Positions 3,573 through 63,809 of a stretch of 64,000 nucleotides of DNA are shown one piece after another. The stretch lies in the NCBI GenBank assembly GCA_026770705.1, contig JANJGN010000026.1:21762001-21826000 (forward strand). The letters are read 5' to 3'. The notes beneath the pieces are model-generated. The model ran no database searches. It was given only the letters and a program-made list of their open reading frames with translations, and was not told the DNA's origin. The stretch is from Isurus oxyrinchus (Eukaryota). The position numbers and the translations under genes were made by a program. The number at the start of each line of letters is the position of its first letter. Position 1 is the first letter of the stretch.

Positions 3573-4744
3573 ATTTATATGAAAGCCCCTGACAGTTATA
3601 TTCACCCACCATCAAATAAAGACACTTTATAATATTCTGTGTCACATGAAACCCTTTGTGGATGAAAACGGGATCTGCTGCAGTCATCAAAGTAGATTGA
3701 ACACATTTTCACTGAAATTAAGTTAACCGGATGCTTGTGATCCTTGGTTTTGGTTTTAATCATTTTATTAGAAACTGCTCATTTCATAAAGGCGTTTATA
3801 TATTTGGTAAATAGGTGCAGACTGTTTATTGAATCAGACAGTGGAGCAGGAAAATACTCACTTGATTCGATCTTCATTGTGTGGGGATTTACATTCAAAA
3901 CTCATTGGTAACGTCACTGCACCACCTGAGGTCAGCTCAGACTGGGGGTTCTGTATGTTGTCTGTGAGCGTTAATCCGTAAATAACAGTATTTAGGAATG
4001 TAAACCTGGACGAATGGAACTCAACTTCTAATTTGACATATGTGATTCACAAGTGAGTTCACAACACCTGTTTAATCAAATTCCTGTGCTCTACACTCTA
4101 GCGTTCTTTCAACCCACCTCCAGAAATATATAAAGATAATCAAGGCTTTCTCAGCAGAATGAGAAGAGTTCTACTCTTCTCTGATTGTTGGATTGCTCCT
4201 TACGAGGCTCACACTGCTATGAAACCTTCTAGTTCCGTCTCAGGGAGAAACCACTCCTCCACACATCACTGATTCAGGCAGTATATCAGTGAGCCTCCTT
4301 CCTCAAAATGGATGCCAAAACCTCTCCTCCTGTTACAGTTCTGTCTTTGCAGCAGCGCAGCAAGATTGGGAGAGACAGAATCTGTGATTGGAAGAGATGC
4401 TGCTCACTGATTCTGTCTCTCACAAAGGTTTTACTTCCAGTGCTTGTCCCTGTGATTGAATTTTCATGGGTTTTTGTGGGGTGAATTTTCCCGCTGCCCC
4501 TGTGCATTGTGTGGTTCTGAAATACTGTCAGTCTGATTTTAAGGCTTCCTAGAATAATGAACTGATCCAAATTTGAAATGATCCATATCCCCGTCTGAGT
4601 TCCAGATTTTAATGCAATTGTCGAATCCGGAAAACATATATAAGTTAACCCCTTTAAACCTGATTCAGCACATTCCCTCCACACATAATACAAGAGATTG
4701 TCTTTGAGATCAGTTGTTCCTTTGTAGTCAGTATTGTCCTGAAG

Positions 4745-4852: not shown

Positions 4853-4984
4853 AATGATGACAGTATTAACCTTCTCCCTAACCTGTCCTGACCCTTCCAT
4901 TATTTATTTTTTTGAAACTAGGGACTCTCCTTGTTCGAATGGTGACATTCCCTGTCTGCCCAGTTATTGTTGCATCACTAAGAT

Positions 4985-5170
4985 ACAAGCAAAGTACTGC
5001 AGATACTGCAAATCTGAAATAAAAACAGAAACTACTGGAAAAAATCAGCAAATCTGACAACATCTGTGGAGAGCCTGAAGAAGTCATATAGACTAGAAGT
5101 CTATAACTGTATTTCTCTCTCCACAGATGCTGTTAGACCTGCTTAGTTTTTCCAGCAGTTTCTTTTATTT
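4985..5170. repeat. Inverted pair of Penelope-terminal repeat fragments with decayed hammerhead-like core
   Basis: 5010-5073 is the reverse complement of CTCTCCACAGATGCTG..GACCTGCT..TTTTCCAG at 5116-5170; degenerate CTGAAGA.AGTC..GACT.GAA between them. Confidence 0.65.
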
Positions 5171-5214
5171 TACATTATTTATTATTATTTCATCATGTTG
5201 CCACAATTCGCTAA

Positions 5215-6179: not shown

Positions 6180-6790
6180 TTATTGTGATCACTGGTTTGT
6201 GCAGACCCAGACGTTCTGTGTTCACACCGACAATTGCGCGGTGTCATCATCCCGCTCCCCAGGTATTTCCTCAACTGGGAGATTTTTCTCTGACTCCAGT
6301 GCTTCTGATATCTCTCCAGCTGCAGGCTTCAGTGGGAGATTTTAAAATTGAAAACAGCGAAATTGTTTCAGAGGTGATTATTTTTGACCATTCATCTACA
6401 TTTATTGCTATGCTCCGTAATCTGAGAGAGGTTCTGTGTCTCTGGGGCTGGTGTGACTTCTTTAATATGGATCTGAATCCATTGCTGTCTTTCACCTCTA
6501 CCCTCCTGATCACCTCTCTGCCATGGTTTAACTTCCATTGCCTTTAATTTTAGTTTTGTTTAGTATTTCACTGTTACTTCTACTAAATGAGGTTTTCACC
6601 GCTGCCCATCCCCTGGCCATGTGCAGCTGGCTTAACAGCTTTATCTTCCCACCATACCTTTCATAGTCAGGAATTGTTTTTTCCTGTGGTATCGTCCATT
6701 TCTCTTCTGTTGCTGTGCTTATAGTGACCATCAAATTTTGCACCATTTTTATTCCCTGGAATTCATTCTGCACATTGAAATGTTAACTCT
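6180..6790 (+). other. Conserved intronic block of lineage-A ZNF genes with candidate non-coding exon 6263-6372
   Basis: Paralogous to 21660-22305(-), 27980-28560 and 33280-34090; CCCCAG|GTATTTCCTC...CAGAG|GTGA. Confidence 0.6.
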
Positions 6791-6802
6791 GTTTCTCTCT
6801 CA

Positions 6803-7165
6803 TATGAACATACGGATTAGGAGCAGGAGCAGACCACTCAGCCCCTATCATTTAATAAGATCATGGCTGATCTGATTGTAACCTCAACTTCACATTCCCG
6901 CCTACTCCGATAACATTGCACTCCCTTGCTTGTCAAGAATCTATCTACCACTGCCTTAAAAATATTCAAAGACTCTATTTCCAGCACCTTTTGCAGAAGA
7001 GAGTTCCAAAGACTCACAACCCTCTGAGAGAAAAATATTCTCCTCATCTCTGTCTTAAATGGGTGACCCCCTTATTTTTATACAGTGGCCCCTAGTTCTA
7101 GATTCTCCCACAAGAGGAAACTTCATCTCCACATCCACCCTGTCAAGACTCCTCAGGATCTTGAG
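6803..7165 (-). mobile_element. CR1 LINE 3' end
   Basis: ORF 6838..7047 MRRIFFSQRVVSLWNSL; CR1 tail. Confidence 0.85.
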
Positions 7166-12169: not shown

Positions 12170-14730
12170 CACTGTGGGTGACCTTAATCTACATATAGAT
12201 TGAACAAACCAAACAAGCGATAATATTGTGGAGGAGGATTTCCTGGAGTGTGTACATGATAGTTTTTTAGACCAATACGTTGAGGAACCAACCAGAGAGC
12301 AGGCTATCCTAGACTGGGCATTGTGCAATGAGAAAGAATTAATTAACAATCTTGTTGTGCAGGGTCCCTTGGGGAAGAGCGACCATAAAATGATAGAATT
12401 GTTCATTAGGATGGAAAGTGAACATGTTGAATCCAAAACTAGGGTCCTGAATCTGAATAAAGGGAACTATGAGGGTATGAGGTGCAAGTTGGCAATGATG
12501 TATTAGGAAACCTTACTAACAGGATTGACAGTGGATTGGCAATGGCTAATATTTAAGAAACATATGCATAAGTTACAACAATTATTCCTGTCTGGTGCAA
12601 GAATAAAATAGGAAAGGTGGCTCAACCATAGATTATAAAAGAAATTAGGGATAGTATTAGATCCAAAGAGGAGACATATAAAAATGCCAGAAAAAGCAGC
12701 AAGCCTGAGGATTGGGAGCAGTTTAGAATTTAACAAACGTGGACAAAAAGATTGATCAAGAAGGGGAAAATGGAGTATGAGAACATAAAAGGAACATAAA
12801 AACTGACAGAAAACACTTCTATAAATATATGAAGAGAAACAGATTAGCGAAGACAAATGTAGGTCTCTTACAGTCAGAAATGGGGGAAATTATGATGGGG
12901 AACAAAGAAATGGCAGAAGAATTGAACACATATTTTGGTTCTGTCTTCACAAAAGAGGACACAAATAATTTCCCAGAAAAGTTAGGCAACCAAGGGTTTA
13001 GTGAGAGGGAGGAATTGAAGAAAAGCAGTATAAGTAAAAAAAAAATGGTGCTAGAGAAATTAATGGGGTTAAAGGCTGAAAAATCCCCAGGGCCTGATAA
13101 CCTACACCCCAGAGTACTAAAGGAAATGGCCCTGGAAATATTGGATGCACTGATGGTCATCTTCCAAAATTCTATAGACTCTGGAGCAATTCCTACAAAT
13201 TGGGGGTGGCAAATTTAACCCCACTGTTTAAAAAAGGATGGAGAAAAAAACAGAATTACAGACCAGTTAGCCTAATGTCAGTAGTGGGGAAATTGCTAGA
13301 ACCTAGTATAAAAGATGTGGTAACAGAACATTTGAAAAGCATTAACAGGATTAGATAAAGTCAGCATGGGTTTATGAAAGGGAAATCATGCTTAACTTAA
13401 TGTACTGGAATTTTTTGAGGATGTAACTAGTAGAATAGATAAGGGAGAACCAGTGGATGTGATGTATCTGGATTTCAAGAAGGCTTTTGCTAAAGTCCCA
13501 CGTAAGGGGCTAGTGGGAAAAATTAAAACACATGGGATTGGAGGTCATATACTGGCATGGATTGAGAACTGGTTGACAGACCGGAAACATAGAGTGGGAA
13601 TAAATGGGTCTTTTTCCAGGTGGTAGGCGGTGTACCGCAGGAATCAGTGCTTGGGCCCCAGTTATTCACGATATATATAAATGACTTGAGTGAGGGAACC
13701 AAATGCAATATTATAAATGCAACAAAAACAAAATACTGGAAAAACTCAGCAGGTTTAGCAGCATCTGTGGAGAGAGAAACAAAGTTAACGTTTCGAGTCC
13801 GTAAGACCCTTCTTCAGAGCAATATTTCCAAGTTTCCTGATGACCCAAAACTGGGTGGGGTTGTGAGTTGTAAGGAGGATGCAGGGAGGTTCAGGGTGAT
13901 TTAGACAAGTTGTGTGTGTGGGCAAACGCATAGCAGATGCAGTATAACGTGGATAAATGTGAAGTTATACACTTTGGTGTGAAAAACAGAAAGGCAGAGT
14001 ATTTTTTAAATGGTGATATATTGGGATGTACAAAGGGATCTGGGTGTCCTTGTACACCAGTCAATGAAAATAAACAGGCAGCAAGCAATTAGGAAGGCAA
14101 ATGGTATGTTGGCCTTCATTGCAAGAGGATTTGAGTTCAGAAGTAGGGATGTCTTACTGCATAATACAGGCCTTGGTGAGACCACATCTGGAGTATTACA
14201 TGCAGTTTTGGTCTCCCTACCTGAGAAAGGATATATGTGCCTTAGAGGGAGTACAGCGAAAGTTCACTAGGCTGATACCGGGGATGGCAGGACTGTTGTA
14301 TGAGGAGAGATTAGTTTGAGTGGGCCTGTATCCATTAGAGTTTAGGAGCATGAGAGGGGACCTGATTTAAATGTATAAAATTCTAACTGGGCTAGACAGA
14401 CTAGATGCAGGGAGGATGTTTCCCCAGGCTGGGGAATATAGAACCAGGGGCCACAGCCTCAGGATATGGGGCAGACCATTTAGCACTGAGATGAGAAAAA
14501 GTTTCTTCATTCAGAGGGTGGTCAACCTGTGGAATTCTCTGCCACAGGAGGCTGTGGAGGCCGGGTCACTGAGTATATTCAAGAAAGAAATTGGTCAATC
14601 TTTGGATATTCGGGGCATCAAGGGAAAGAAAGCGGAAATATGTTGTTGAGATAGAAGATCAGCCATGATCATATTGAATTGCAGAGCAGGCTCGAAGGGC
14701 CGAATGGCCTGCTGCTGCTCCTGGTTTCTA
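12170..14730 (+). mobile_element. CR1 LINE (endonuclease end, RT, 3' UTR), decayed
   Basis: FLDQYVEEPTREQAILD, LGKSDH, KSPGPDNLHPRVLKE, GVPQxSVLGP.LF.IYINDL, RPHLEY..QFWSP; CR1 tail at ~14700; TGAGAC flanks both sides. Confidence 0.93.
13713..13818 (-). mobile_element. 106-bp Penelope-terminal insert with hammerhead-like motif, nested in CR1
   Basis: TSD GCAATATT at 13705-13712 and 13819-13826; minus strand CTGAAGA-A-GGGTC-ttacg-GACTC-GAAA-C-GTT-AACT. Confidence 0.8.
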
Positions 14731-19495: not shown

Positions 19496-20094
19496 GTTCA
19501 AAGGCTGATGATATTCAGGTCCTGATGAATTGGGTGACTCATTCAGATCCTGATGTGATGTTTAGTTTGAGTTTCTGAACTGCAAATTCTCCCCTTCTAA
19601 TCTCCTGTGCAACTGACTTAAAACAGAAAAAAGGGAGTGAGAGAGAACCCACACATACCAAAGGCAGGTTGTGAAACTGAACTGAATGAATCTGGTAATT
19701 TGTGCAGCTGGAACTAGGAACAAGTGATCATGAAAACTGCTTGATTGTCGTAAAAACCCAACTGGTTCACTAATTCCTGCAGGGAAGGGAACCTGCCACC
19801 CAGTCTAGGCCAACACAAGACTCTAGGCACTATGGGAGGAGAGAGAGAGAGAAGTGGGAGAGGCAGGTAGCAAACGAGAGACAAACTCAACCATAACTGT
19901 GACAGAAACTCCCAAACCCTCAACCCCCACCACTTGGAAGGACCAGGGTTACAGGTTTTTGTGAACACCATCAACTCTAAGTTCCCCTCCAAGTCACGCA
20001 CCATCCTGACTTGCCTGACATCCAGTCCTGGATGAGAAGAAATTTCCTCCATTTAAGTATTGAGAGAGTGAAGCCATTGACTTCAGTCCCTGTA

Positions 20095-20850: not shown

Positions 20851-21659
20851 TGGACATATATCACTGTTCCTTCCTCATCGCTGGGTGAATAACCTCTAAC
20901 TCCTTATCGAACAGCATCATGGGAGCATCTTCAACACACGGACTGTAGTGGTTCAAGAAGGTCAAACATCATATTTTCCACAGGTAACTGGGGATGGGTA
21001 ACATCTGCTGCTGGTCTTGTTAATGACACCCAATCCCATGAATTAATTTTAAAAATATGTCCATGTAAAGTAGATTGAAAGCATCCACAGAAATACTTTT
21101 CCCTAAATCAATACTCTTTTACATTGACTGAACAGTGTCCATTCAACAACCTTATCTCTCCTGAAATCTATCTCCCTTGACAATTTCACATTGGAAATTT
21201 CTGGGTCTGACTGGATTCCAAAGTCCTTAGGGTTAAACCCAGCAGCTTCTACTCCAGTTCAAACTGTTGCAAAAAAAGGTTTTCAAAAGAGAACTGGATA
21301 ATCACCTGAAGATAAAAAAACACAATTGCTGGACTATGAGGAATGGACAGGGGAGTGGGACTAACTGATTTGGAGTTGCAGAGAACCAGAATGGGCACGA
21401 TGGGCTAAAGGGCCTCCTGTTTTTTGTTATCATAGTCTGATTCTATTAAATAGACCTGCACTGAAGGCCAGGGACTTCTGTAACAGCCTCACTGCTGCAA
21501 ACCAGCGCTTAACTGGTCTGCCTGTGTCTCTGAACTCAGAGTGCCGCCTGTAATAAAATAACAGCAAAATACTGCAACTGATGGAAATCTGAAATAAAAT
21601 GGGAAAATTCTGGAAGTACCCAGTAGGTCAAGCAATATCTGTGGAGAAAGAAACAGTTA

Positions 21660-22305
21660 AAGTTTCAGTGTGTTAATGAATTATGGGGAATAAAAATGGT
21701 GCAGAATTTGATGGTCATTATAGCTCAGAAGTGAAAGAGAAATGGGCCATAGCACAGGAAAAACAATTCCTGACTGAAAGATACTGTGGGAAGATAAAAC
21801 TGATAAGCCAGCTGCACATTGTTGAGGGAAGGGCGGCTGTGGAAAATGCATTTTTACATGGTCAGTGAAAGAAACAGTAAAATACTAAACATAACTAAAA
21901 TATACCCATTAATTAGGCAACAGCAGAGAGGTGATCAGCGACAGCAGAGGTGAAAAAGAGCAATGGATGGATATGGATTCAGATCCACAGTGAAGGTGTC
22001 ACACCAGCCCCAGAGCCATGGAATCTCTCACAGATAACAAGGCATAACATTAAATGCTCTAAATTGTAGATGGATGCTGAATAATACTCCCCTCTATAAC
22101 AATTCCACTGTTTTCATTTTTAAAATCTCCAGCTGGAGCCTGCAGCTGGAAAGATATCAGATGCACTGGAGTCAGAGAAAAAAATTTTCCAGTTGAGTAA
22201 ATACCCGGGGAGTGGGGTGATGTCACTGAGCAATTGTCAGTGTGTGATGACATCACAGACACGAACACAGAACATCTGGGTCTGTGCAAACCAGTGATCA
22301 CCACA
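21660..22305 (-). other. Conserved lineage-A intronic block (locus 4 copy)
   Basis: Reverse-complement paralog of 6180-6790; the candidate splice sites are mutated here. Confidence 0.6.
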
Positions 22306-27570: not shown

Positions 27571-27702
27571 TTACCCAAGACATTATCACTCGCTGCGTCA
27601 AAAGAAGGTCTTCCTCACATCTCCCTTCTGTATCTCTTGCACAAAATCTTTTTGATTAGTTAATGGGAACAGTTAATCTTTATCTACCTGGTATAAAACT
27701 AG

Positions 27703-27812
27703 CACAAGTTCTGTTGAAGAGTCATACGGACTCGAAACGTTAACTGTGTGCCTCTCCCCAGATGCTGCCAGACCTGCTGAGTTTTTCCAGGTATTTTCAC
27801 TTTTGTTTTTGT
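27703..27812 (+). mobile_element. Penelope-terminal short insert with hammerhead-like motif (27703-27748)
   Basis: CACAAGTT-CTGTTGA-A-GAGTC-atacg-GACTC-GAAA-C-GTT-AACTGTG followed by the GATGCTGCCAGACCTGCTGAG tail. Confidence 0.75.
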
Positions 27813-33656: not shown

Positions 33657-34599
33657 ATCTGCAATTTAGAGCTTTTAATTCTATGCTCTGTTATTTGTAT
33701 GAAGTCCCACGTTTCTGGGGCTGGTTTGGCTACTTTACAGTAGAAGTGAACCCAAGCCCATCCATTGGTCTATTTCACCTCTGCCCTCCCTGATCACCTC
33801 TCTGCCATTATATAACTTCCTCTGCCTCTGATAATGAATGTATTGTAGTTATGTTTGGTATTTTAATGTTACTGCCATTGACTATGTCTAAATGAGGTTC
33901 CACTGCTGCCCATCCCCCAACCATGTGCTGCTGGCTTTCCATCTTCCCACATGATCTTTCATTGTTACGTCTTGTTTAGCCTGCGCTATTGTCCATTTCT
34001 CTTCCATGTCTAACCTTATACTGCAAGTCAAATTCTGCACCATTTTTATTCCCCGTAATTCATTCTGCGCATCCTGAAATGTTAATGCTGTTTCTCGCTC
34101 CAAAGAAATTGCCCGACCTGCTGAGTATTCCCAGCGTTTTTTATTTTTATTTCAGATTTCCAGCAGCTGCAGTATTTTACTATTATTTTATTCCAGGCAT
34201 CGCTCAGAGAACCAAGTCTGGAAACACAGACAGATTGATTAAGAGCTGGGTTGCATCATGGTGGGCTTTGGTGGCAGAAGCTGATCTCTGACCTCCAATG
34301 TAGGTCCTTTTTCATTGAGTCATAGAATCATTGAGTGATTACAATGCAGAAGAAGACTATTTAGCACGTTGTGCTCAGGCTGGCTCTTGACAAGAGCAAA
34401 TCAGCTCCCATGTCCCTGTCCTTTCACCAACAGGACCAGCAGCATATATTACCAATCTCCAGTTGCCTGTGGAGAAGATGAGGTTTGACCTTCTTGAACC
34501 ACTGCAGTCCATGTGGCGGAGGTGCTCCCACAATGTTGTTAGATAAGGAGTTACAGGTTATTCACTCTGTGATGATGAAGGCCATATATGTCCAAGTCA

Positions 34600-39178: not shown

Positions 39179-40527
39179 TTTCATCTCATAAATGATGTAA
39201 TCCTCGTTAGTGAATCTGTGCGATATCGTCATTGCTCTTCTCATGATTTCTACCTGAACATCTGATCTCGTTCTGAGAGACTTAATAACGTCTTTGTATT
39301 CAGTCCGTCTCCTGACCCTCTGACTCAGTGCCGAGGACATACATTGTCTGTTCTTCCAGATCATTAATGTATTGGTGTCTGTTCACAGGCTCTAATCTTA
39401 TCCTCAGTATGACCTCCTAGAGCCTACTTCTATTGCAGATTCTTAGTTTAATGTGTGTAAGTGTCTGTACTATTGAGAAATGTTTAATAGAGTTATTAGA
39501 ATTATTCAAGTCTTCCTCACCTGGCCTTCCCACTGTCTACATTCCCCACCTCGAGGCTCAAGAAGATTCTTCCTTTTGTAGCTTCAAAGCTTTTCTCTTG
39601 GTCAGTGCAAACATTTCCATTATATTCTTTCTCCTTGTAACCTGTCTTACAATTCTTTCCATCCCACAGACCATCAATAGAAGAGGAATTAGCATCATCT
39701 GTAATACTAGGAGGAAAGTACATGCTGTGATTATCCAGGGATGTTCTTCTGTATTTTACTCTATCTCCAACCAGGGATGATCACCCAGGTGACAATAGAT
39801 CACTCAAATGTTATTGCTTGTTGTTTCCCGTGTCCCAGGTGTTGTTCAATATTGATTTAAACTTCAGAGAAAACCATGAAATTGTATGGCCAAAACCATT
39901 CAGAATCACTGGAGGATAATGTGTGAGTGTGAATGTGGGTCTCTGTGTTTGAGTGTGTGGTTGTCTGTTATGGGTATATGTGTGCCTGTGTGCAGGTTTC
40001 TGTGTATGGGTGTCTGTGAGCGTGTGTGCTGTTTCTTATTAACTGTAAAACAAACCTTCCCCTCTCTGAGCAGACAATGTTGGTTCTCCTAGAATCTCAT
40101 TGAATGATTTGAATGGTACCATTCAGAGATTCTTCATCCAGAGTGAAGCTATAGGCTGACCGTCTGCTGCGTAAAATCTGACATCTACACAACCAGGCCC
40201 CATTTCTCCTGGAACAACACAAGCTGACTGCTACTTTCCAGATCCCTTCCTTTCCCCTCACTATCATCCTCAGATAGTTCACAAATTCCTTGTACACATC
40301 ATCCTCCAACTCATCTATGGTCTCCACCTCACTTTAAAGACTTCCATTGCTCTTATCAACAGTTAGCAATGGGATAGCTGCTAACATAGAAATCAGTTCT
40401 GAAATACTGTCACTCTGATTTTAAGGCTTGCCGTAGGAGTACGTGGAACCAGATCTTCCCACCTCACACCAATACATATTCCCATCTGAGTTCAACATTT
40501 TAATGCGATTGTCCAATCTAGGAAACA

Positions 40528-40566
40528 AGTTCTGAAGAAGAGTCACATGGACTCGAAACATTAACT
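40528..40566 (+). ncRNA. Minimal type I hammerhead ribozyme-like motif
   Basis: AGUU-CUGAAGA-A-GAGUC-acaug-GACUC-GAAA-C-AUU-AACU: canonical core boxes, 5-bp stem II, 4-bp stem I. Confidence 0.62.
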
Positions 40567-40631
40567 CTGTCTTTCTCTCCACAGATGCTGTCAGGCCTGC
40601 TGAGTTTTTCTAGCAATTTTTGTTTTTGTCA
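40528..40631 (+). mobile_element. 104-bp Penelope-terminal insert with hammerhead motif
   Basis: TSD AGGAAACA at 40520-40527 and 40632-40639; empty site in paralog at ~4630. Confidence 0.82.
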
Positions 40632-40894
40632 AGGAAACATATATCATTTAACCCCTTTAAACCTGATTGAGCACCCACACTCCATGCACACAAACTACAA
40701 GAGATTGTCTTTGAGACCAGTTGTTGCTGTATATATATGAACAGTTTGAACCTTCTCCCTAACCTGTCCTAACCCTTCTGTTGTTCGTTTATTGAAAACA
40801 AGGACACTCCTTGTTCTAATGGTGACATTCCCTGTTTGCCCAGTTATTCCTTGAAGTAACCCTTGAATTAGTTCTGCATTGTTTCATCATGTTC

Positions 40895-50060: not shown

Positions 50061-50144
50061 GGGAGGTGAGATCCCAGGCACTGCACTGATGTCATAAAGC
50101 ATCACCATTCTATCCATCTGGTCCTCTCCTTGTCCCTTTAAAGG

Positions 50145-50472
50145 TGGAGAACTGGGACATCCTGTCTCCAAACACATCCCACCCTGTTCATACTGAGAAT
50201 CCCAGGCTGGAGAACTGGGACATATGTCTCCAAACACATCCCACCCTGTTCATACTGAGAATCCCAGTGTGGAAAACTGGGACATCCTGTCTCCAAACAC
50301 ATCCCACCCTGTTCATACTGAGAATCCCAGTGTGGAAAACTGGGACATTCTGTCTCCAAACACATCCCACCCTGTTCATACTGAGAATCCCAGTGTGGAA
50401 AATTGGGACATCCTGTCTCCAAACACATCCCATCCTGTTCATACCGAGAATCCCAGGGTGGAGAACTGGAAT
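50145..50472. repeat. 63-bp minisatellite, ~5 near-identical copies
   Basis: Unit TGGAAAACTGGGACATCCTGTCTCCAAACACATCCCACCCTGTTCATACTGAGAATCCCAGTG; explains the 21-aa repeat ORFs. Confidence 0.95.
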
Positions 50473-53589: not shown

Positions 53590-56372
53590 TTGTGATCTGA
53601 AAGCTATTACAGAGACATAGCTTCAAGGTGGCAAAGGCTGGGACCTGAATATTCAAGGGCACATGGTGTTTCAGAAGGACAGGAAGCTAGGAAAAGGTGG
53701 ATGGGTAGATCTGTCAGTTAAGGATGACATTAGTACAACAGAGACAGATGACCTTAGTTCTGGAGATCAAGATGTAGAATCAGATTGGGTAGTGATAAGA
53801 AATAGTAAAGGTAGTGATAATAAATAGTAAAGGTAGGAAGTCACTTGTGGGAATAGTTTATAAGCCCCCTAACAGTAACCACACTGTAGGACAGGGTGTG
53901 TAGAAGGAATAATGGTAGGTATTAATCCAGGTATTTTTATATTTATTTTTGTTTTGGATTTCCAGCATCCGCAGATTTTTGCTTTTAAGAAATAATAGGG
54001 GCTTGTGAGAAAGATACGGCAACAATCTTGGGTGATTTTAACCTACATGTAGATTGCATGAATCCGAACGGCAAAGTTAACCTGGAAGATGAGTTCGTTG
54101 GGTGTTTTCGGAACAATTTCTTAGAGCAGCATGTGCTACAGACAATCAGAAAGCATCTGGTAATGTGTAATGGGAAGGGATTAATTAATGGCCTCATAGT
54201 AAAGGTGCCCCAAGGTAGCAGTGATCATAATATGATTGAATTTTGTATTCAGTTCGAGGGAGAGAAGGGTCTAAGACTAGTGTTTTGAACTTAAATAAGG
54301 AAAATTATGAGGGTATGAAGACACAGCTGGCCAAAGCGAACTGGGAAATTAGACTAAGTGTTAAGTCAGTAGAGATGCAGTGGCAGAAATTTAAGGAGAT
54401 ATTTCATAATACTCAGAAAGATTCCATTGAGAAAAAAGACTCTAGGGGAAATATGTACCATACGTAGCTAACTAAGGCAGTTTAAGATAGTATCAAATTG
54501 AAAGAAAAAGTGTACAATTATGTGAAGATTAGTGGCAGGTTAGAAGATTGGACAGAATATAGAAAAAGCAAAGAACGGCTAAAAAATGAGGAAGAATTTA
54601 GAGTACAAGAGAAAGCTAGATGGAAATATGAAAGCAAATTGTAAGAGTTTCTATGGGTATTCAAAAAGGAAAAGAGTAAGTAAAGTGAACATTGGTCCTC
54701 TACAGGACGAGTCTGGGAATTAATAATGGAAAATAAGGCAATAGAAGATGAATTGAACACATATCTTGCATCTTCACTGTGCAGGTGAAAGGAAGGGAGG
54801 GACTTAAAACAATTACAATCACCAGGGAGAAAGCACTGAGAAAATTATTAGAACTGAAAGTTGAAAGATCCCTGGGTCCTGATTGTCTTCAACTTCGGGT
54901 CCTAAAAGAAGTAGTTGCTCAGACAGTAGATGCATTTGTTTTAATTTTCCAAAATTCCCTAAATTCTGGAATGATCCCAACAGATTGGAAAATTCCTAAG
55001 GTAACACCTTCATTCAACACAGAGGGACAGAAAGCAGGAAATTACAGCCCAACAAGCTTAACATGTGTCACTGGGGAAATGCTGGAATCTATCATTAAGG
55101 TTATAGTGGGACACTTGGAAAATCTCAGTGCAATCAGCTAGAATCAACAGGGTTTTGTGAAAGGGAAATTGGCTTGAGGAAGTAACAAGCAATGTGGATA
55201 AAGGAGAATCTGTGGATGTGATGTACTAGATTTCCAGGATTGACAAGTGCCACATCAAAGGTTACTATACAAAATAAGCTCATGGTGTTCGGGATAACAT
55301 ATTAGCATGGATAGGGGATCGATTAGCTAACAGGAAACAGAGAGTTGGCATAAACAGATCATTTTCAGGTTGGCAAAATGTAACGAGTGAAGTGCCACAG
55401 GGATCAGTGCTGGGCTTCAACTATCTACAACCTATATTAATGGCTTGGATGATGGGGCTGAATGTATGATTGCTAAATCTGCTGATGACATAAAGATAGA
55501 TAGAGGCACAAGTTGCCAAAAATCATAAGGAGTCTGTAAAGTGATATAGACAGGTTAAATGAGTGGGCAAAAATTTGGTAGATGGAGTATAATGTAGGAA
55601 AATGTGAACCTGTGCACGTTGGCAGGAAGAATAGAAAAGCAGCATTTTATATAAACGGAGAGAGACTGCAGAACTCTGAGATGCAGAGGGATCCGGGTGT
55701 CCACTATCTGAATATCAAAATGTTAGTGTGTAGGCACAGCAAGTGATTAGGAAGGCAAATTGAATGTTTTGGTTTGTTGCAAGGGCAATGGAATATAAAA
55801 GTTGGGATGTTTTGCCACAGTTGGACAGGTTGTTAGTAAGACCACATCTAGAGCACTGTGTACAGTTTTGGTCTCCATATTCAAGAAAGGGGTATAAATG
55901 CGTTAGAAGCAGTTCAGAGAAGGTTCACTTGAATGATCCCTGGGATTGGGGTTATTTTACGAGGCAAGGTTGGACAGGCTGGTCCAGTATACATTGGAGA
56001 TTAGAAGAATGAGAGGTGATCTTATTAAAACATATAAGGTCCTGAGGGGCCTTGACAGGATGGATGCTGAAATGATGTTTCCCCTTGTGGGGGAGACTAG
56101 AAATAGGGGACATAGTTTAAAACTATTTAAGGCAGAGATGAGATTTTTTTTCTCTCAAAGGGTCGTGAATCTTTGGAATTTGTTTCCCCAGAGAGCGGTG
56201 GAGAATGGGTCTAATCAATATTTTTAAGGCAAAAGTTATATAAACTCTTGACTAACAAGGGGGTGTAAAATTTCAGGGGAAAGCAGAATGTGAACTGGAG
56301 GTTACAGTCAGATCAGCCATGATCTTATTGAATGGTGGAGCAGGGCCGAATGGCCTATTCCTGCTCCTAATT
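53590..56372 (+). mobile_element. CR1 LINE ORF2 (endonuclease to 3' UTR), decayed
   Basis: AITET, GDFN, SDHN endonuclease motifs; VPQGSVLG, ADD, RPHLEHCVQFWSP; tail GGGCCGAATGGCCTATTCCTGCTCC. Confidence 0.92.
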
Positions 56373-58870: not shown

Positions 58871-59094
58871 AGGGAAGAGGGAGAGAGGCACTAATTTGTG
58901 AGAGAGATCAAAATGACTCATCATACTGTCTGTTAAAGCTGATTTATTTGACTTTTATCCAGAGTATTAACACATATAACAGGGATAGAGTTTATTATCA
59001 TCAGCAGAAACAGATTCCAAAGCTATTTTTGTTTTGATACAAGTGATGGAGAATTACCGGGAAGGTCAATACAACATGGAGATTGTTTTAAATA

Positions 59095-59215
59095 AAAGCA
59101 AAATACTATGATTGCTGGGAAACTGAAATAAAACCAGAAAATGGTGAAAAACTCAGCAGGTCTAGCAGCATCAGTGGAAATAGAAAAACCAAGTTAACAT
59201 TTTGCGTCCATACAG
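59095..59215 (-). repeat. Penelope-terminal repeat, degenerate
   Basis: AAAACTCAGCAGGTCTAGCAGCATC, the reverse complement of the shared tail. Confidence 0.7.
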
Positions 59216-59249
59216 ATTTCCTTCCCTGAAGGACATTAGTGAACCAAAG

Positions 59250-62200: not shown

Positions 62201-62215
62201 CATTGATGATGATCC

Positions 62216-63705
62216 CACCCCTCCATCATTTTCACGTGGTCCATCTCTGACACTTCCCTTCCCTTCCTTGACCTCTCTGTCTCAATCTCTGGTGATAGAC
62301 TGTCCACCAATATCCATTACAAACCCACCGACTCCCACAGCTACCTCGACTACAGCTCCTCACACCCCGCTTCCTGTAAGGACTCCATCCCATTCTCCCA
62401 GTTCCTTCGCCTTCGTCGCATCTGTTCCGATGATGCTACCTTCAAAAACGGTTCCTCTGACATGTCCTCCTTCTTCCTTAACTGAGGTTTTCCACCGACG
62501 GTCGTTGACAGGGCCCTCAACCGTGTCCGGCCCATCTCCCGCGCATCCGCCCTCACGCCTTCTCCTCCCTCCCAGAAACATGATAGGGTCCCCCTTGTCC
62601 TCACTTATCACCCCACCAGCCTCCGCATTCAAAGGATCATCCTCCGCCATTTCCGCCAACTCCAGCATGATGCCACCACCAAACACATCTTCCCTTCACC
62701 CCCCTTATCGGCATTCCGTAGGGATCGCTCCCTCTGGGACACCCTGGTCCACTCCTCCATCACCCCCTACTCCTCAACCCCCTCCTATGGCACCACCCCA
62801 TGCCCACGCAAAAGATGTAACACCTGCCCCTTCACTTCCTCTCTCCTCACCGTCCAAGGGCCCAAACACTCCTTTCAAGTGAAGCAGCATTTCACTTGCA
62901 TTTCCCCCAACTTAGTCTACTGCATTCGTTGCTCCCAATGTGGTCTCCTCTACATTGGAGAGACCAAACGTAAACTGGGCGACCGCTTTGCAGAACACCT
63001 GCGGTCTGTCCGCAAGAATGACCCAAACCTCCCTGTCGCTTGCCATTTTAACACTCCACCCTGCTCTCTTGCCCACATGTCTGTCCTTGGCTTACTGCAT
63101 TGTTCCAGTGAAGCCCAACGCAAACTGGAGGAACAACACCTCATCTTCCGACTAGGTACCTTACAGCCTTCCGGTCTGAATATTGAATTCAATAACTTTA
63201 GGTCGTGAGCTCCCTCCCCCATCCCCACCCCCTTTCTGTTTCCCCCTTTTTTTCCCCTTTTTTTTCCCTATAAATTTTATAGATTTTTCTTTTCCCACCT
63301 ATTTCCATTATTTTTAAATATTTTAAAATCTTTTATGCTCCCCCCACCCCCACTAGAGCTGTACCTTGAGTGCCCTACCATCCATTCTTAATTAGCACAT
63401 TCGTTTAGATAATATCACCAACTTTAACTTTAACACCTATGTGTTCTTTTGTCCCATTGTCACTGACATCTTTTGATGATCTGCTTCTATCACTGCTTGT
63501 TTGTCTACACAAGCACCTCTGTCTCTCTCTCTCTCTCTCTGCCCCCCCACACACACACCTTAAACCAGCTTATATTTCAACTCTTTCTTGGACTCGAAAT
63601 CAAGTTCTCTCGAAGGGTCATGAAGACTCGAAACGTCAACTCTCTTCTTCTCCGCCGATGCTGCCAGACCTGCTGAGTTTTTCCAGGTAATTCTGTTTTT
63701 GTTTC
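62216..63705 (+). mobile_element. Penelope-like retroelement, 5'-truncated: RT C-terminus, GIY-YIG endonuclease, terminal repeat
   Basis: Frame 62216-63208: LPFLDL, YKPT, YLDYSSSHP, CxxxxCxxC, NLVYCIRC..CGLLYIGET.R.L.DRF.EH; one in-frame TGA at 62483. Confidence 0.93.
63603..63641 (+). ncRNA. Hammerhead-like motif in the Penelope terminal repeat (variant core)
   Basis: AGUU-CUCUCGA-A-GGGUC-augaa-GACUC-GAAA-C-GUC-AACU; the first box deviates from CUGANGA. Confidence 0.5.
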
Positions 63706-63809
63706 ACAACTAAAATCGTTGGTCCCAACTAGCTTCCAAAGTCCTTGAGGTTAAACCCAGAAGCTTCTCCTTCATCTCCACTCCAGCTCAAATTGATGCA
63801 ACAAAACAA

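Follow-up and report, generated by a model that had tools for sequence, protein, structure and literature searches.

This locus of the shark Isurus oxyrinchus raises the question of what fixes the ends of inserts of about 105 nt that carry a hammerhead motif and a common tail. The window, which is the whole 64-kb stretch of DNA that was analyzed, is a tandem C2H2 zinc-finger cluster with segmental paralogy, which made empty sites available for comparison. Its C2H2 zinc-finger exons have 84-nt repeats and number at least a dozen, several of them being frameshifted; also seen were LINE fragments at ~12780–14000 and ~54750–55620 and a minisatellite at 50144–50469 (63-bp unit, 5.2 copies, 93% matches). 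An earlier note on this DNA, which listed four copies (A, B, C, and D), read the short inserts as a non-autonomous SINE/retrozyme-like family delimited by its ribozyme. The combination of a hammerhead-based profile with a tail-only profile, which recovered all fragments irrespective of the hammerhead, gave 11 hammerhead/tail fragments in the window (Table 1). These are copies A to E, the inverted arm I located beside E, the old copies F, G, H, and J, and the tail-only copy K. All four copies listed before were present, but the inverted pair E/I and five older or shorter fragments had been missed, the latter at 59208 (minus strand), 34076 (plus), 21666 (minus), 6777 (plus), and 53926 (plus). 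Because G, H, and J are found at paralogous positions, they were counted as one insertion.

Table 1. Hammerhead/tail copies in the window and the TSDs of copies A and B
Feature	Position	Strand	Description
Copy A	40528..40631	+	Hammerhead and short tail; G to A decay of the stem III palindrome
Left TSD of A	40520..40527	+	Right copy at 40632–40639; empty paralog at ~4625–4640
Copy B	13713..13818	-	Starts 1 nt before core; lacks stem I 5′ strand; interrupts LINE RT frame
TSD of B	13705–13712 and 13819–13826		Exact 8-bp repeat
Copy C	27707 to ~27810–27812	+	D-like subfamily; core CUGUUGA; stems I–III intact; empty paralogs at ~22450 and ~6024
Copy D	62213..63705	+	5′-truncated PLE; hammerhead 63603–63641, core broken; tail ends at 63705
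Copy E	5075..5176	+	Sense arm of inverted pair; starts at first base of core
Copy I	~4980..5073	-	Inverted arm, long tail; ends ~11 nt short of cut site
Copy F	59090..59227	-	Old; long tail; 5′ end in hammerhead region, ill defined
Copy G	34075..34190	+	Old; long tail; 5′ end within stem II; empty paralog at ~28570
Copy H	21555–21666	-	Same insertion as G after segmental duplication
Copy J	6777–6812	+	Same insertion as G after segmental duplication
Copy K	53926..53987	+	Tail only; D-like; long tail

Judged from its sequence, copy D is a 5′-truncated endonuclease-positive (EN+) Penelope-like element (PLE). It consists, in this order, of an RT thumb, a CX4CxxC linker, a GIY-YIG with CCHH, a 3′ UTR/pLTR, the hammerhead, and the tail; the RT thumb-like sequence, the linker, and the GIY-YIG lie within the frame 62486–63208, and the RT core has been truncated away. 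The GIY-YIG was matched in Pfam with an E value of 1e-4, and the D protein matched RT-GIY-YIG proteins of elasmobranchs (sharks, rays) with 54–64% identity (6 of 28 matches). An RT-linked GIY-YIG with CCHH and a pLTR with a minimal type I hammerhead, by which EN+ PLEs are recognized, are both present, as are the optional 30–40 bp tail, an inverted truncated partner, and TSDs, which are further traits of this group. The CX4CxxC linker, taken by itself, points to a position of the element nearer to Neptune/Nematis than to Poseidon. Copies A, B, and C are each 77–82% identical to D at 63603–63705, which agrees with the earlier observation that A and B carry the same tail as that copy. The tail shared with D, which carries the GIY-YIG, also bears out the Penelope origin proposed for the short inserts, and the entire insert is PLE-derived.

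The independent insertion of the short copies by PLE machinery, as the earlier note had it, was supported by TSDs and empty sites. The two 8-bp TSDs are exact 8-mers, at 40520 and 40632 for A and at 13705 and 13819 for B, while at 20,000 random positions a 105-nt span had such an exact repeat at its two ends, to within 3 nt, in 0.17% of cases. In the paralog near 4630, insert A is absent and its target is present once; empty paralogs also exist for C (22450 and 6024) and for the E/I insertion (~40855). No TSD was found for D, F, G/H, or E/I, and only a 6-mer for K. The placement of B inside CR1 held insofar as a LINE RT frame is split by B: when the flanks were translated separately, the left one ended with ...TKCNI and the right one started with SKFPDD.... 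We take this LINE to be CR1 from a likeness of motifs and from a paralog at ~55400–55620, while a Pfam search of its two short flanks gave no match. A and B start 4 nt and 1 nt upstream of the CUGAAGA core, as described before, and the third copy, expected at ~27703, is present at 27707–27810, although its core is CUGUUGA instead of CUGAAGA; its 5′ end is ambiguous, 3 to 10 nt before the core. At 4980–5176, a head-to-head inverted pair of a long-tail arm and a short-tail arm forms one insertion, and this arrangement fits priming from both target strands. It was also seen, post hoc, that the target flanks of A (40518–40527) and B (13819–13828) are similar to the sequence that precedes the D hammerhead (7/10 and 6/10 bases, respectively), which is a hint of microhomology joining or of target preference.

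The 3′ ends fall into two classes. In D numbering, A to E end at 63702–63706, while F, G, H, I, and K end ~35–40 nt further. The same two classes were found in the public DNA run X1, with loose ends at 63702–63706 and 601 contigs that continue at 63704 into the long tail. They match the two RT starts and the 30–40 bp tail of the anole PLE, for which in vitro data explained the tail by two internal RT start sites (Frangieh et al. 2024, PMC11167929). The long tail folds back in copy I (4980–5065, minus strand; z -1.9, with 8 of 200 shuffles as good), and the same was noted for F, G, and H; this fold-back is a candidate RT-start structure in the folding model. The long tail also contains two tracts that resemble splice acceptors, and most A-type copies have a short open reading frame in it. 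Across the copies, the tail reading frame is open in A, B, C, E, G, H, and I, but contains stops in D and F. When proteins that begin with this frame were looked for, none was found among 909 candidates, the search being weak because about half of the query was host flank. A scan of viral contigs for the tail motif gave 0 matches; in metagenome contigs, 0 and then 3 matches were obtained, and the 3, which share only the motif, were dismissed as chance.

The motif agrees in its core, stems I and II, and palindromic stem III with the minimal type I hammerhead descriptor as given in PMC4209133. Its elements follow in the order stem I 5′ strand, core, stem II, GAAA, palindromic stem III, cut, and stem I 3′ strand. 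A scan of the copies with Rfam gave no hammerhead match, none at E≤1, so the hammerhead call rests on the published descriptor. Cleavage is predicted after 63637 (D numbering), which is ~30 nt inside the short inserts and downstream of their 5′ edge. An RNA delimited by cleavage would start at the cut and lack the core, while the short inserts keep the core, which leaves delimitation by the ribozyme unsupported. No 5′ end lies within 3 nt of the cut among the 8 short ends in the window and the 13 back-joints in X1 (0/21), and the summed depth across the cut site does not change (ratio 1.01). These two results speak against the inserts being "ribozyme-delimited".

None of the five hammerhead-bearing copies is an intact canonical ribozyme. 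A is without the stem III palindrome, B and E are without the stem I 5′ strand, and D has a changed G5, while C, non-canonical at core position A6, is a putative ribozyme. In the D-like subfamily, core position 6 seems to be a pyrimidine (63607–63613; CUGUUGA in C at 27711–27717; similar in the X1 joints). The conservation of stem II claimed before was confirmed as far as pairing is concerned (96% of cells), but there were no compensatory double changes, and the one exchange seen is a single G-U without a compensatory pair. The accompanying variation of loop II was rejected as a sign of selection, because the loop of D is unlike ~85% of the run depth at 63624, i.e., it is private decay; the loop II differences are subfamily traits and private decay. 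In C (27702–27751) and A (40521–40575), stem I is extended past a single bulge by pairing of the bases that precede it with those that follow it; in A, the preceding bases are host DNA. The inserts contain an uncut hammerhead, through which RT has copied. This agrees with the anole finding that cleavage is unneeded and uncut RNA is the substrate; in that study uncut RNA was the substrate in vitro, the hammerhead was protein-assisted, and no RNA-seq reads ended at the cut (PMC11167929).

Instead, the 5′ ends of the short copies tend to be at the hammerhead upstream edge, ~30 nt before the cut. The starts of A, B, C, and E range from ~6 nt before the core to its first base (for C possibly 10 nt before), while the 5′ ends of F, G/H/J, I, and K are further inside the element. 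Thus, 4 of the 8 short ends in the window cluster within ~7 nt (scan p 0.051), with G, H, and J counted once and D left out (4/9 if included). The contigs of X1, about half covered, were compared over 63562–63801. They contained at least 13 single-locus back-joints, 6 of 13 of which restart at 63600–63608 (scan p 0.014; p 1e-4 to 5e-4 with the interval preset from the window copies), 4 of the 6 restarts having been placed by eye from the letters between, with a raw count of 5/13 in 63600–63610. One forward skip in X1, two joints of X16, and 3 unlisted X1 joints are outside the 13-joint count. The depth at the back-joints was 22–66, compared to ~30 in unique flank. Five of the 6 clustered joints lead to internal tail positions at 63643–63696, and such varied targets suit RT jumping at a template end, unlike a circle, which has a single junction. 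Although the samples are small, the window ends and the X1 joints at the upstream edge support a non-random 5′ boundary at the hammerhead, as had been claimed.

Two further signals at this edge were set aside. The 5.6-fold rise in depth is confounded by a sister subfamily. The loose ends at 63603, 52 in number, are short (median 13) and have a common consensus with an agreement of 0.47, which is as high as in the true tail extension; they are probably not host flanks but a sister subfamily with different upstream sequence. Their consensus resembles a branch point, a pyrimidine tract, and an AG, and the homology between subfamilies appears to break at the AG just before the hammerhead (63590–63605). 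By analogy with Penelope of D. virilis, this acceptor-like AG could possibly be the end of an intron at helix I. In that element, a 5′ UTR intron at 416–491 ends at helix I, transcription starts at 371, ~120 nt upstream of the hammerhead, and the pLTR contains an internal promoter (PMC2377424, PMC4209133). A literature search, with subscription papers, Repbase/Dfam, and supplements beyond its reach, found no description of a preferred 5′ boundary at the hammerhead upstream edge.

The short inserts also differ in descent. In a tree, C groups with the long copy D (bootstrap 90–92), apart from A, B, and E, in alignments of 70–100 nt and with no long A-type copy in the window. By this grouping of sequences, the inserts starting at the edge belong to two subfamilies or more. 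The unit forms no tandem array in the window, and X1 shows only single-locus partial tandems with varied junctions; as to a Pol III promoter head, there was no tRNA and no Rfam match on any copy. The idea of a distinct SINE/retrozyme family was not supported, as the inserts are not one clade, form no tandem array in the window, and have no tRNA-like head. The data favor a recurring by-product of autonomous PLEs over one SINE, and secondary amplification or a self-propagating lineage of short copies may have occurred.

The best explanation, which we hold at about even confidence, is that the short inserts are run-off copies of the end module of autonomous EN+ PLEs, made on a template RNA whose 5′ end is near the upstream edge of the hammerhead. 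The boundary likely marks the start of the template RNA rather than a separate family cut out by the ribozyme. As is known for this class, GIY-YIG would nick AT-rich DNA and the nick would prime reverse transcription; the traces of this step seen here are the TSDs and the empty sites. RT would then begin within the tail, at either of two start sites, which would account for the short-tail and long-tail 3′ ends in the shark. It would copy through the uncut hammerhead and stop in an interval of ~9 nt around the 5′ strand of stem I, where the RNA would have its physical 5′ end, produced either by transcription initiation or by processing. Since both ends of a PLE transcript are expected to bear the module, use of the 5′ module would give a ~105-nt insert resembling a "strong-stop" product, and use of the 3′ module would give long copies such as D. 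At the stop, RT could join the target, jump to an internal point of the template, which would give a partial tandem, or meet a second cDNA from the other strand, which would give an inverted pair such as E/I. The clustered joints, at single-locus depth and leading into the internal tail, are as template jumps at an RNA end would give. Several observations count against run-off. The start in D. virilis ~120 nt upstream means that a start at the hammerhead edge is not the known arrangement, the protein search (0/909) leaves the 5′ module at the head of the ORF as a conjecture, 4 of the 8 short window ends are elsewhere, and the samples are small. A bolder version, which we regard only as tentative, is that shark PLE transcripts begin at the hammerhead upstream edge and the ~105-nt strong-stop product is routinely made, inserted, and used in telomerase-style template jumping; this product may then be amplified in turn, as the smallest PLE unit of a non-autonomous kind, and give rise to retrozyme arrays. 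Such re-amplification could be based on the signals for protein binding and RT start that the unit would keep, possibly along with an internal promoter.

A less probable explanation of the edge is that the RNA is longer, that RT stalls or is displaced where it meets the protein-bound hammerhead, and that microhomology serves to join the cDNA. An RT stall at RNA structure is expected at the entry side, which here is the 3′ side of the stems (63629–63641), and not after they have been crossed; moreover, the folding of whole copies was not better than that of shuffled sequences (z -0.75 to +2.0). On the other hand, F and G/H/J start inside the hammerhead and I just after it, the flanks of A and B resemble the upstream bases of D, post hoc, and the anole hammerhead is reported as protein-assisted (PMC11167929). 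Joining guided by stem I is more doubtful still. The second cDNA would be primed from the other target strand, possibly on ribozyme-cut RNA. Its terminal sequence, complementary to the stem I 3′ strand, would anneal to the part of the first cDNA that is complementary to the stem I 5′ strand. The inverted junctions, counted in E/I and in one joint of X16, do combine a sense start at 63606–63607 with an inverted arm end at 63646–63650, 9–12 nt past the cut, and the PLE protein nicks and extends both strands (PMC11167929). Neither junction, however, is the exact overlap predicted, B is without overlap, and no opposite-strand joint is among the X1 joints listed. The complementarity around stem I in A and C would also suit this reading, but in A the complementary bases are host DNA.

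There is little probability, too, that the short copies are a separate non-autonomous SINE/retrozyme family, bounded by the ribozyme and with master copies of its own, as the earlier note read them. Their uniform length, TSDs, and very high module abundance are what such a family would show, any module-bearing transcript could serve as template, given that the shortest active 5′ truncation described is 20 nt into the ORF (PMC11167929), and PLE-derived retrozymes with monomers, including one from a chondrichthyan, are described in a preprint (bioRxiv 10.64898/2026.07.22.740005). Against it are the lack of ends at the cut, of a tandem unit in the window, of an intact ribozyme, and of compensatory change, the joints without the fixed junction of a circle, and the origin of the inserts from more than one clade. 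It is similarly improbable that 5′ truncation was random and that the cluster arose by chance and by recognition bias, with homology between subfamilies ending at the hammerhead edge. In its favor, the window scan gave a p value of no better than 0.05, subfamily divergence confounds the signals from loose ends and depth, and PLEs are described as heavily truncated (PMC4209133, PMC8557442). However, A, B, and E are bounded by a TSD, an empty site, or an inverted arm and not by loss of homology, the tail-only profile found all fragments regardless of the hammerhead, and the X1 joints are an independent set.

The shark copies share much with known systems, as these are presented in the cited texts. 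Single dispersed minimal hammerheads were described as "probably related to truncated PLEs" (Cervera and de la Peña 2014, PMC4209133), and tails and inverted partners are standard in EN+ PLEs (Craig et al. 2021, PMC8557442). Like such truncated elements, the shark copies have an extra base before stem II, a palindromic stem III, mostly single motifs, the tail, inverted pairs, and TSDs, while the preferred 5′ boundary at the hammerhead upstream edge sets them apart from what these papers describe (PMC4209133, PMC8557442). In rotifers, solo pLTRs and microhomology 5′ junctions were reported (PMC3846280). Poseidon PAc of Anolis likewise has two 3′ ends a tail apart, ~90–140 nt past the hammerhead, inserts with an uncut hammerhead, and priming on both strands (PMC11167929). 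It differs in that the CX2-5CxxC linker of Neptune/Nematis, present in shark D, is absent from Poseidon, its tail is AC-rich while that of the shark is U-rich, and its ORF starts at the hammerhead, an arrangement that is conjectural for the shark element (PMC11167929). Retrozymes are tandem units (Cervera and de la Peña 2020, PMC7229834; PMC6765202), which a 2026 preprint derives from pLTRs (Li et al., bioRxiv 10.64898/2026.07.22.740005). The animal non-LTR retrozymes resemble the shark copies in being non-coding and PLE pLTR-derived, with a type I hammerhead and existing monomers, but their ribozymes release linear and circular RNAs from the tandem units, whereas the shark copies are scattered, decayed, and flanked by TSDs, with ends that are not set by the cut (PMC7229834; bioRxiv 10.64898/2026.07.22.740005).

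An analogy may also be drawn to LTR retroelements. Their minus-strand strong-stop DNA is a short cDNA made from near the RNA 5′ end to that end, from which it jumps to another template. The likeness, which is one of analogy only, is in the short cDNA reaching the RNA end and in the template jump, while the shark product would be target-primed, inserted as such, and made without a tRNA primer.

The elements themselves are an ordinary and very common repeat, and both single PLE hammerheads and PLE-derived retrozymes have already been published; the boundary at the hammerhead edge is one under-described regularity. It bears on open questions about PLEs, which are how they are copied in vivo, how pseudo-LTRs and partial tandems originate, and what role the hammerhead has. 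The position of the boundary upstream of the cut argues against cleavage as the step that defines the inserts, and a fixed 5′ boundary in abundant short copies would be a fossil read-out of the template RNA end and of RT jumping.
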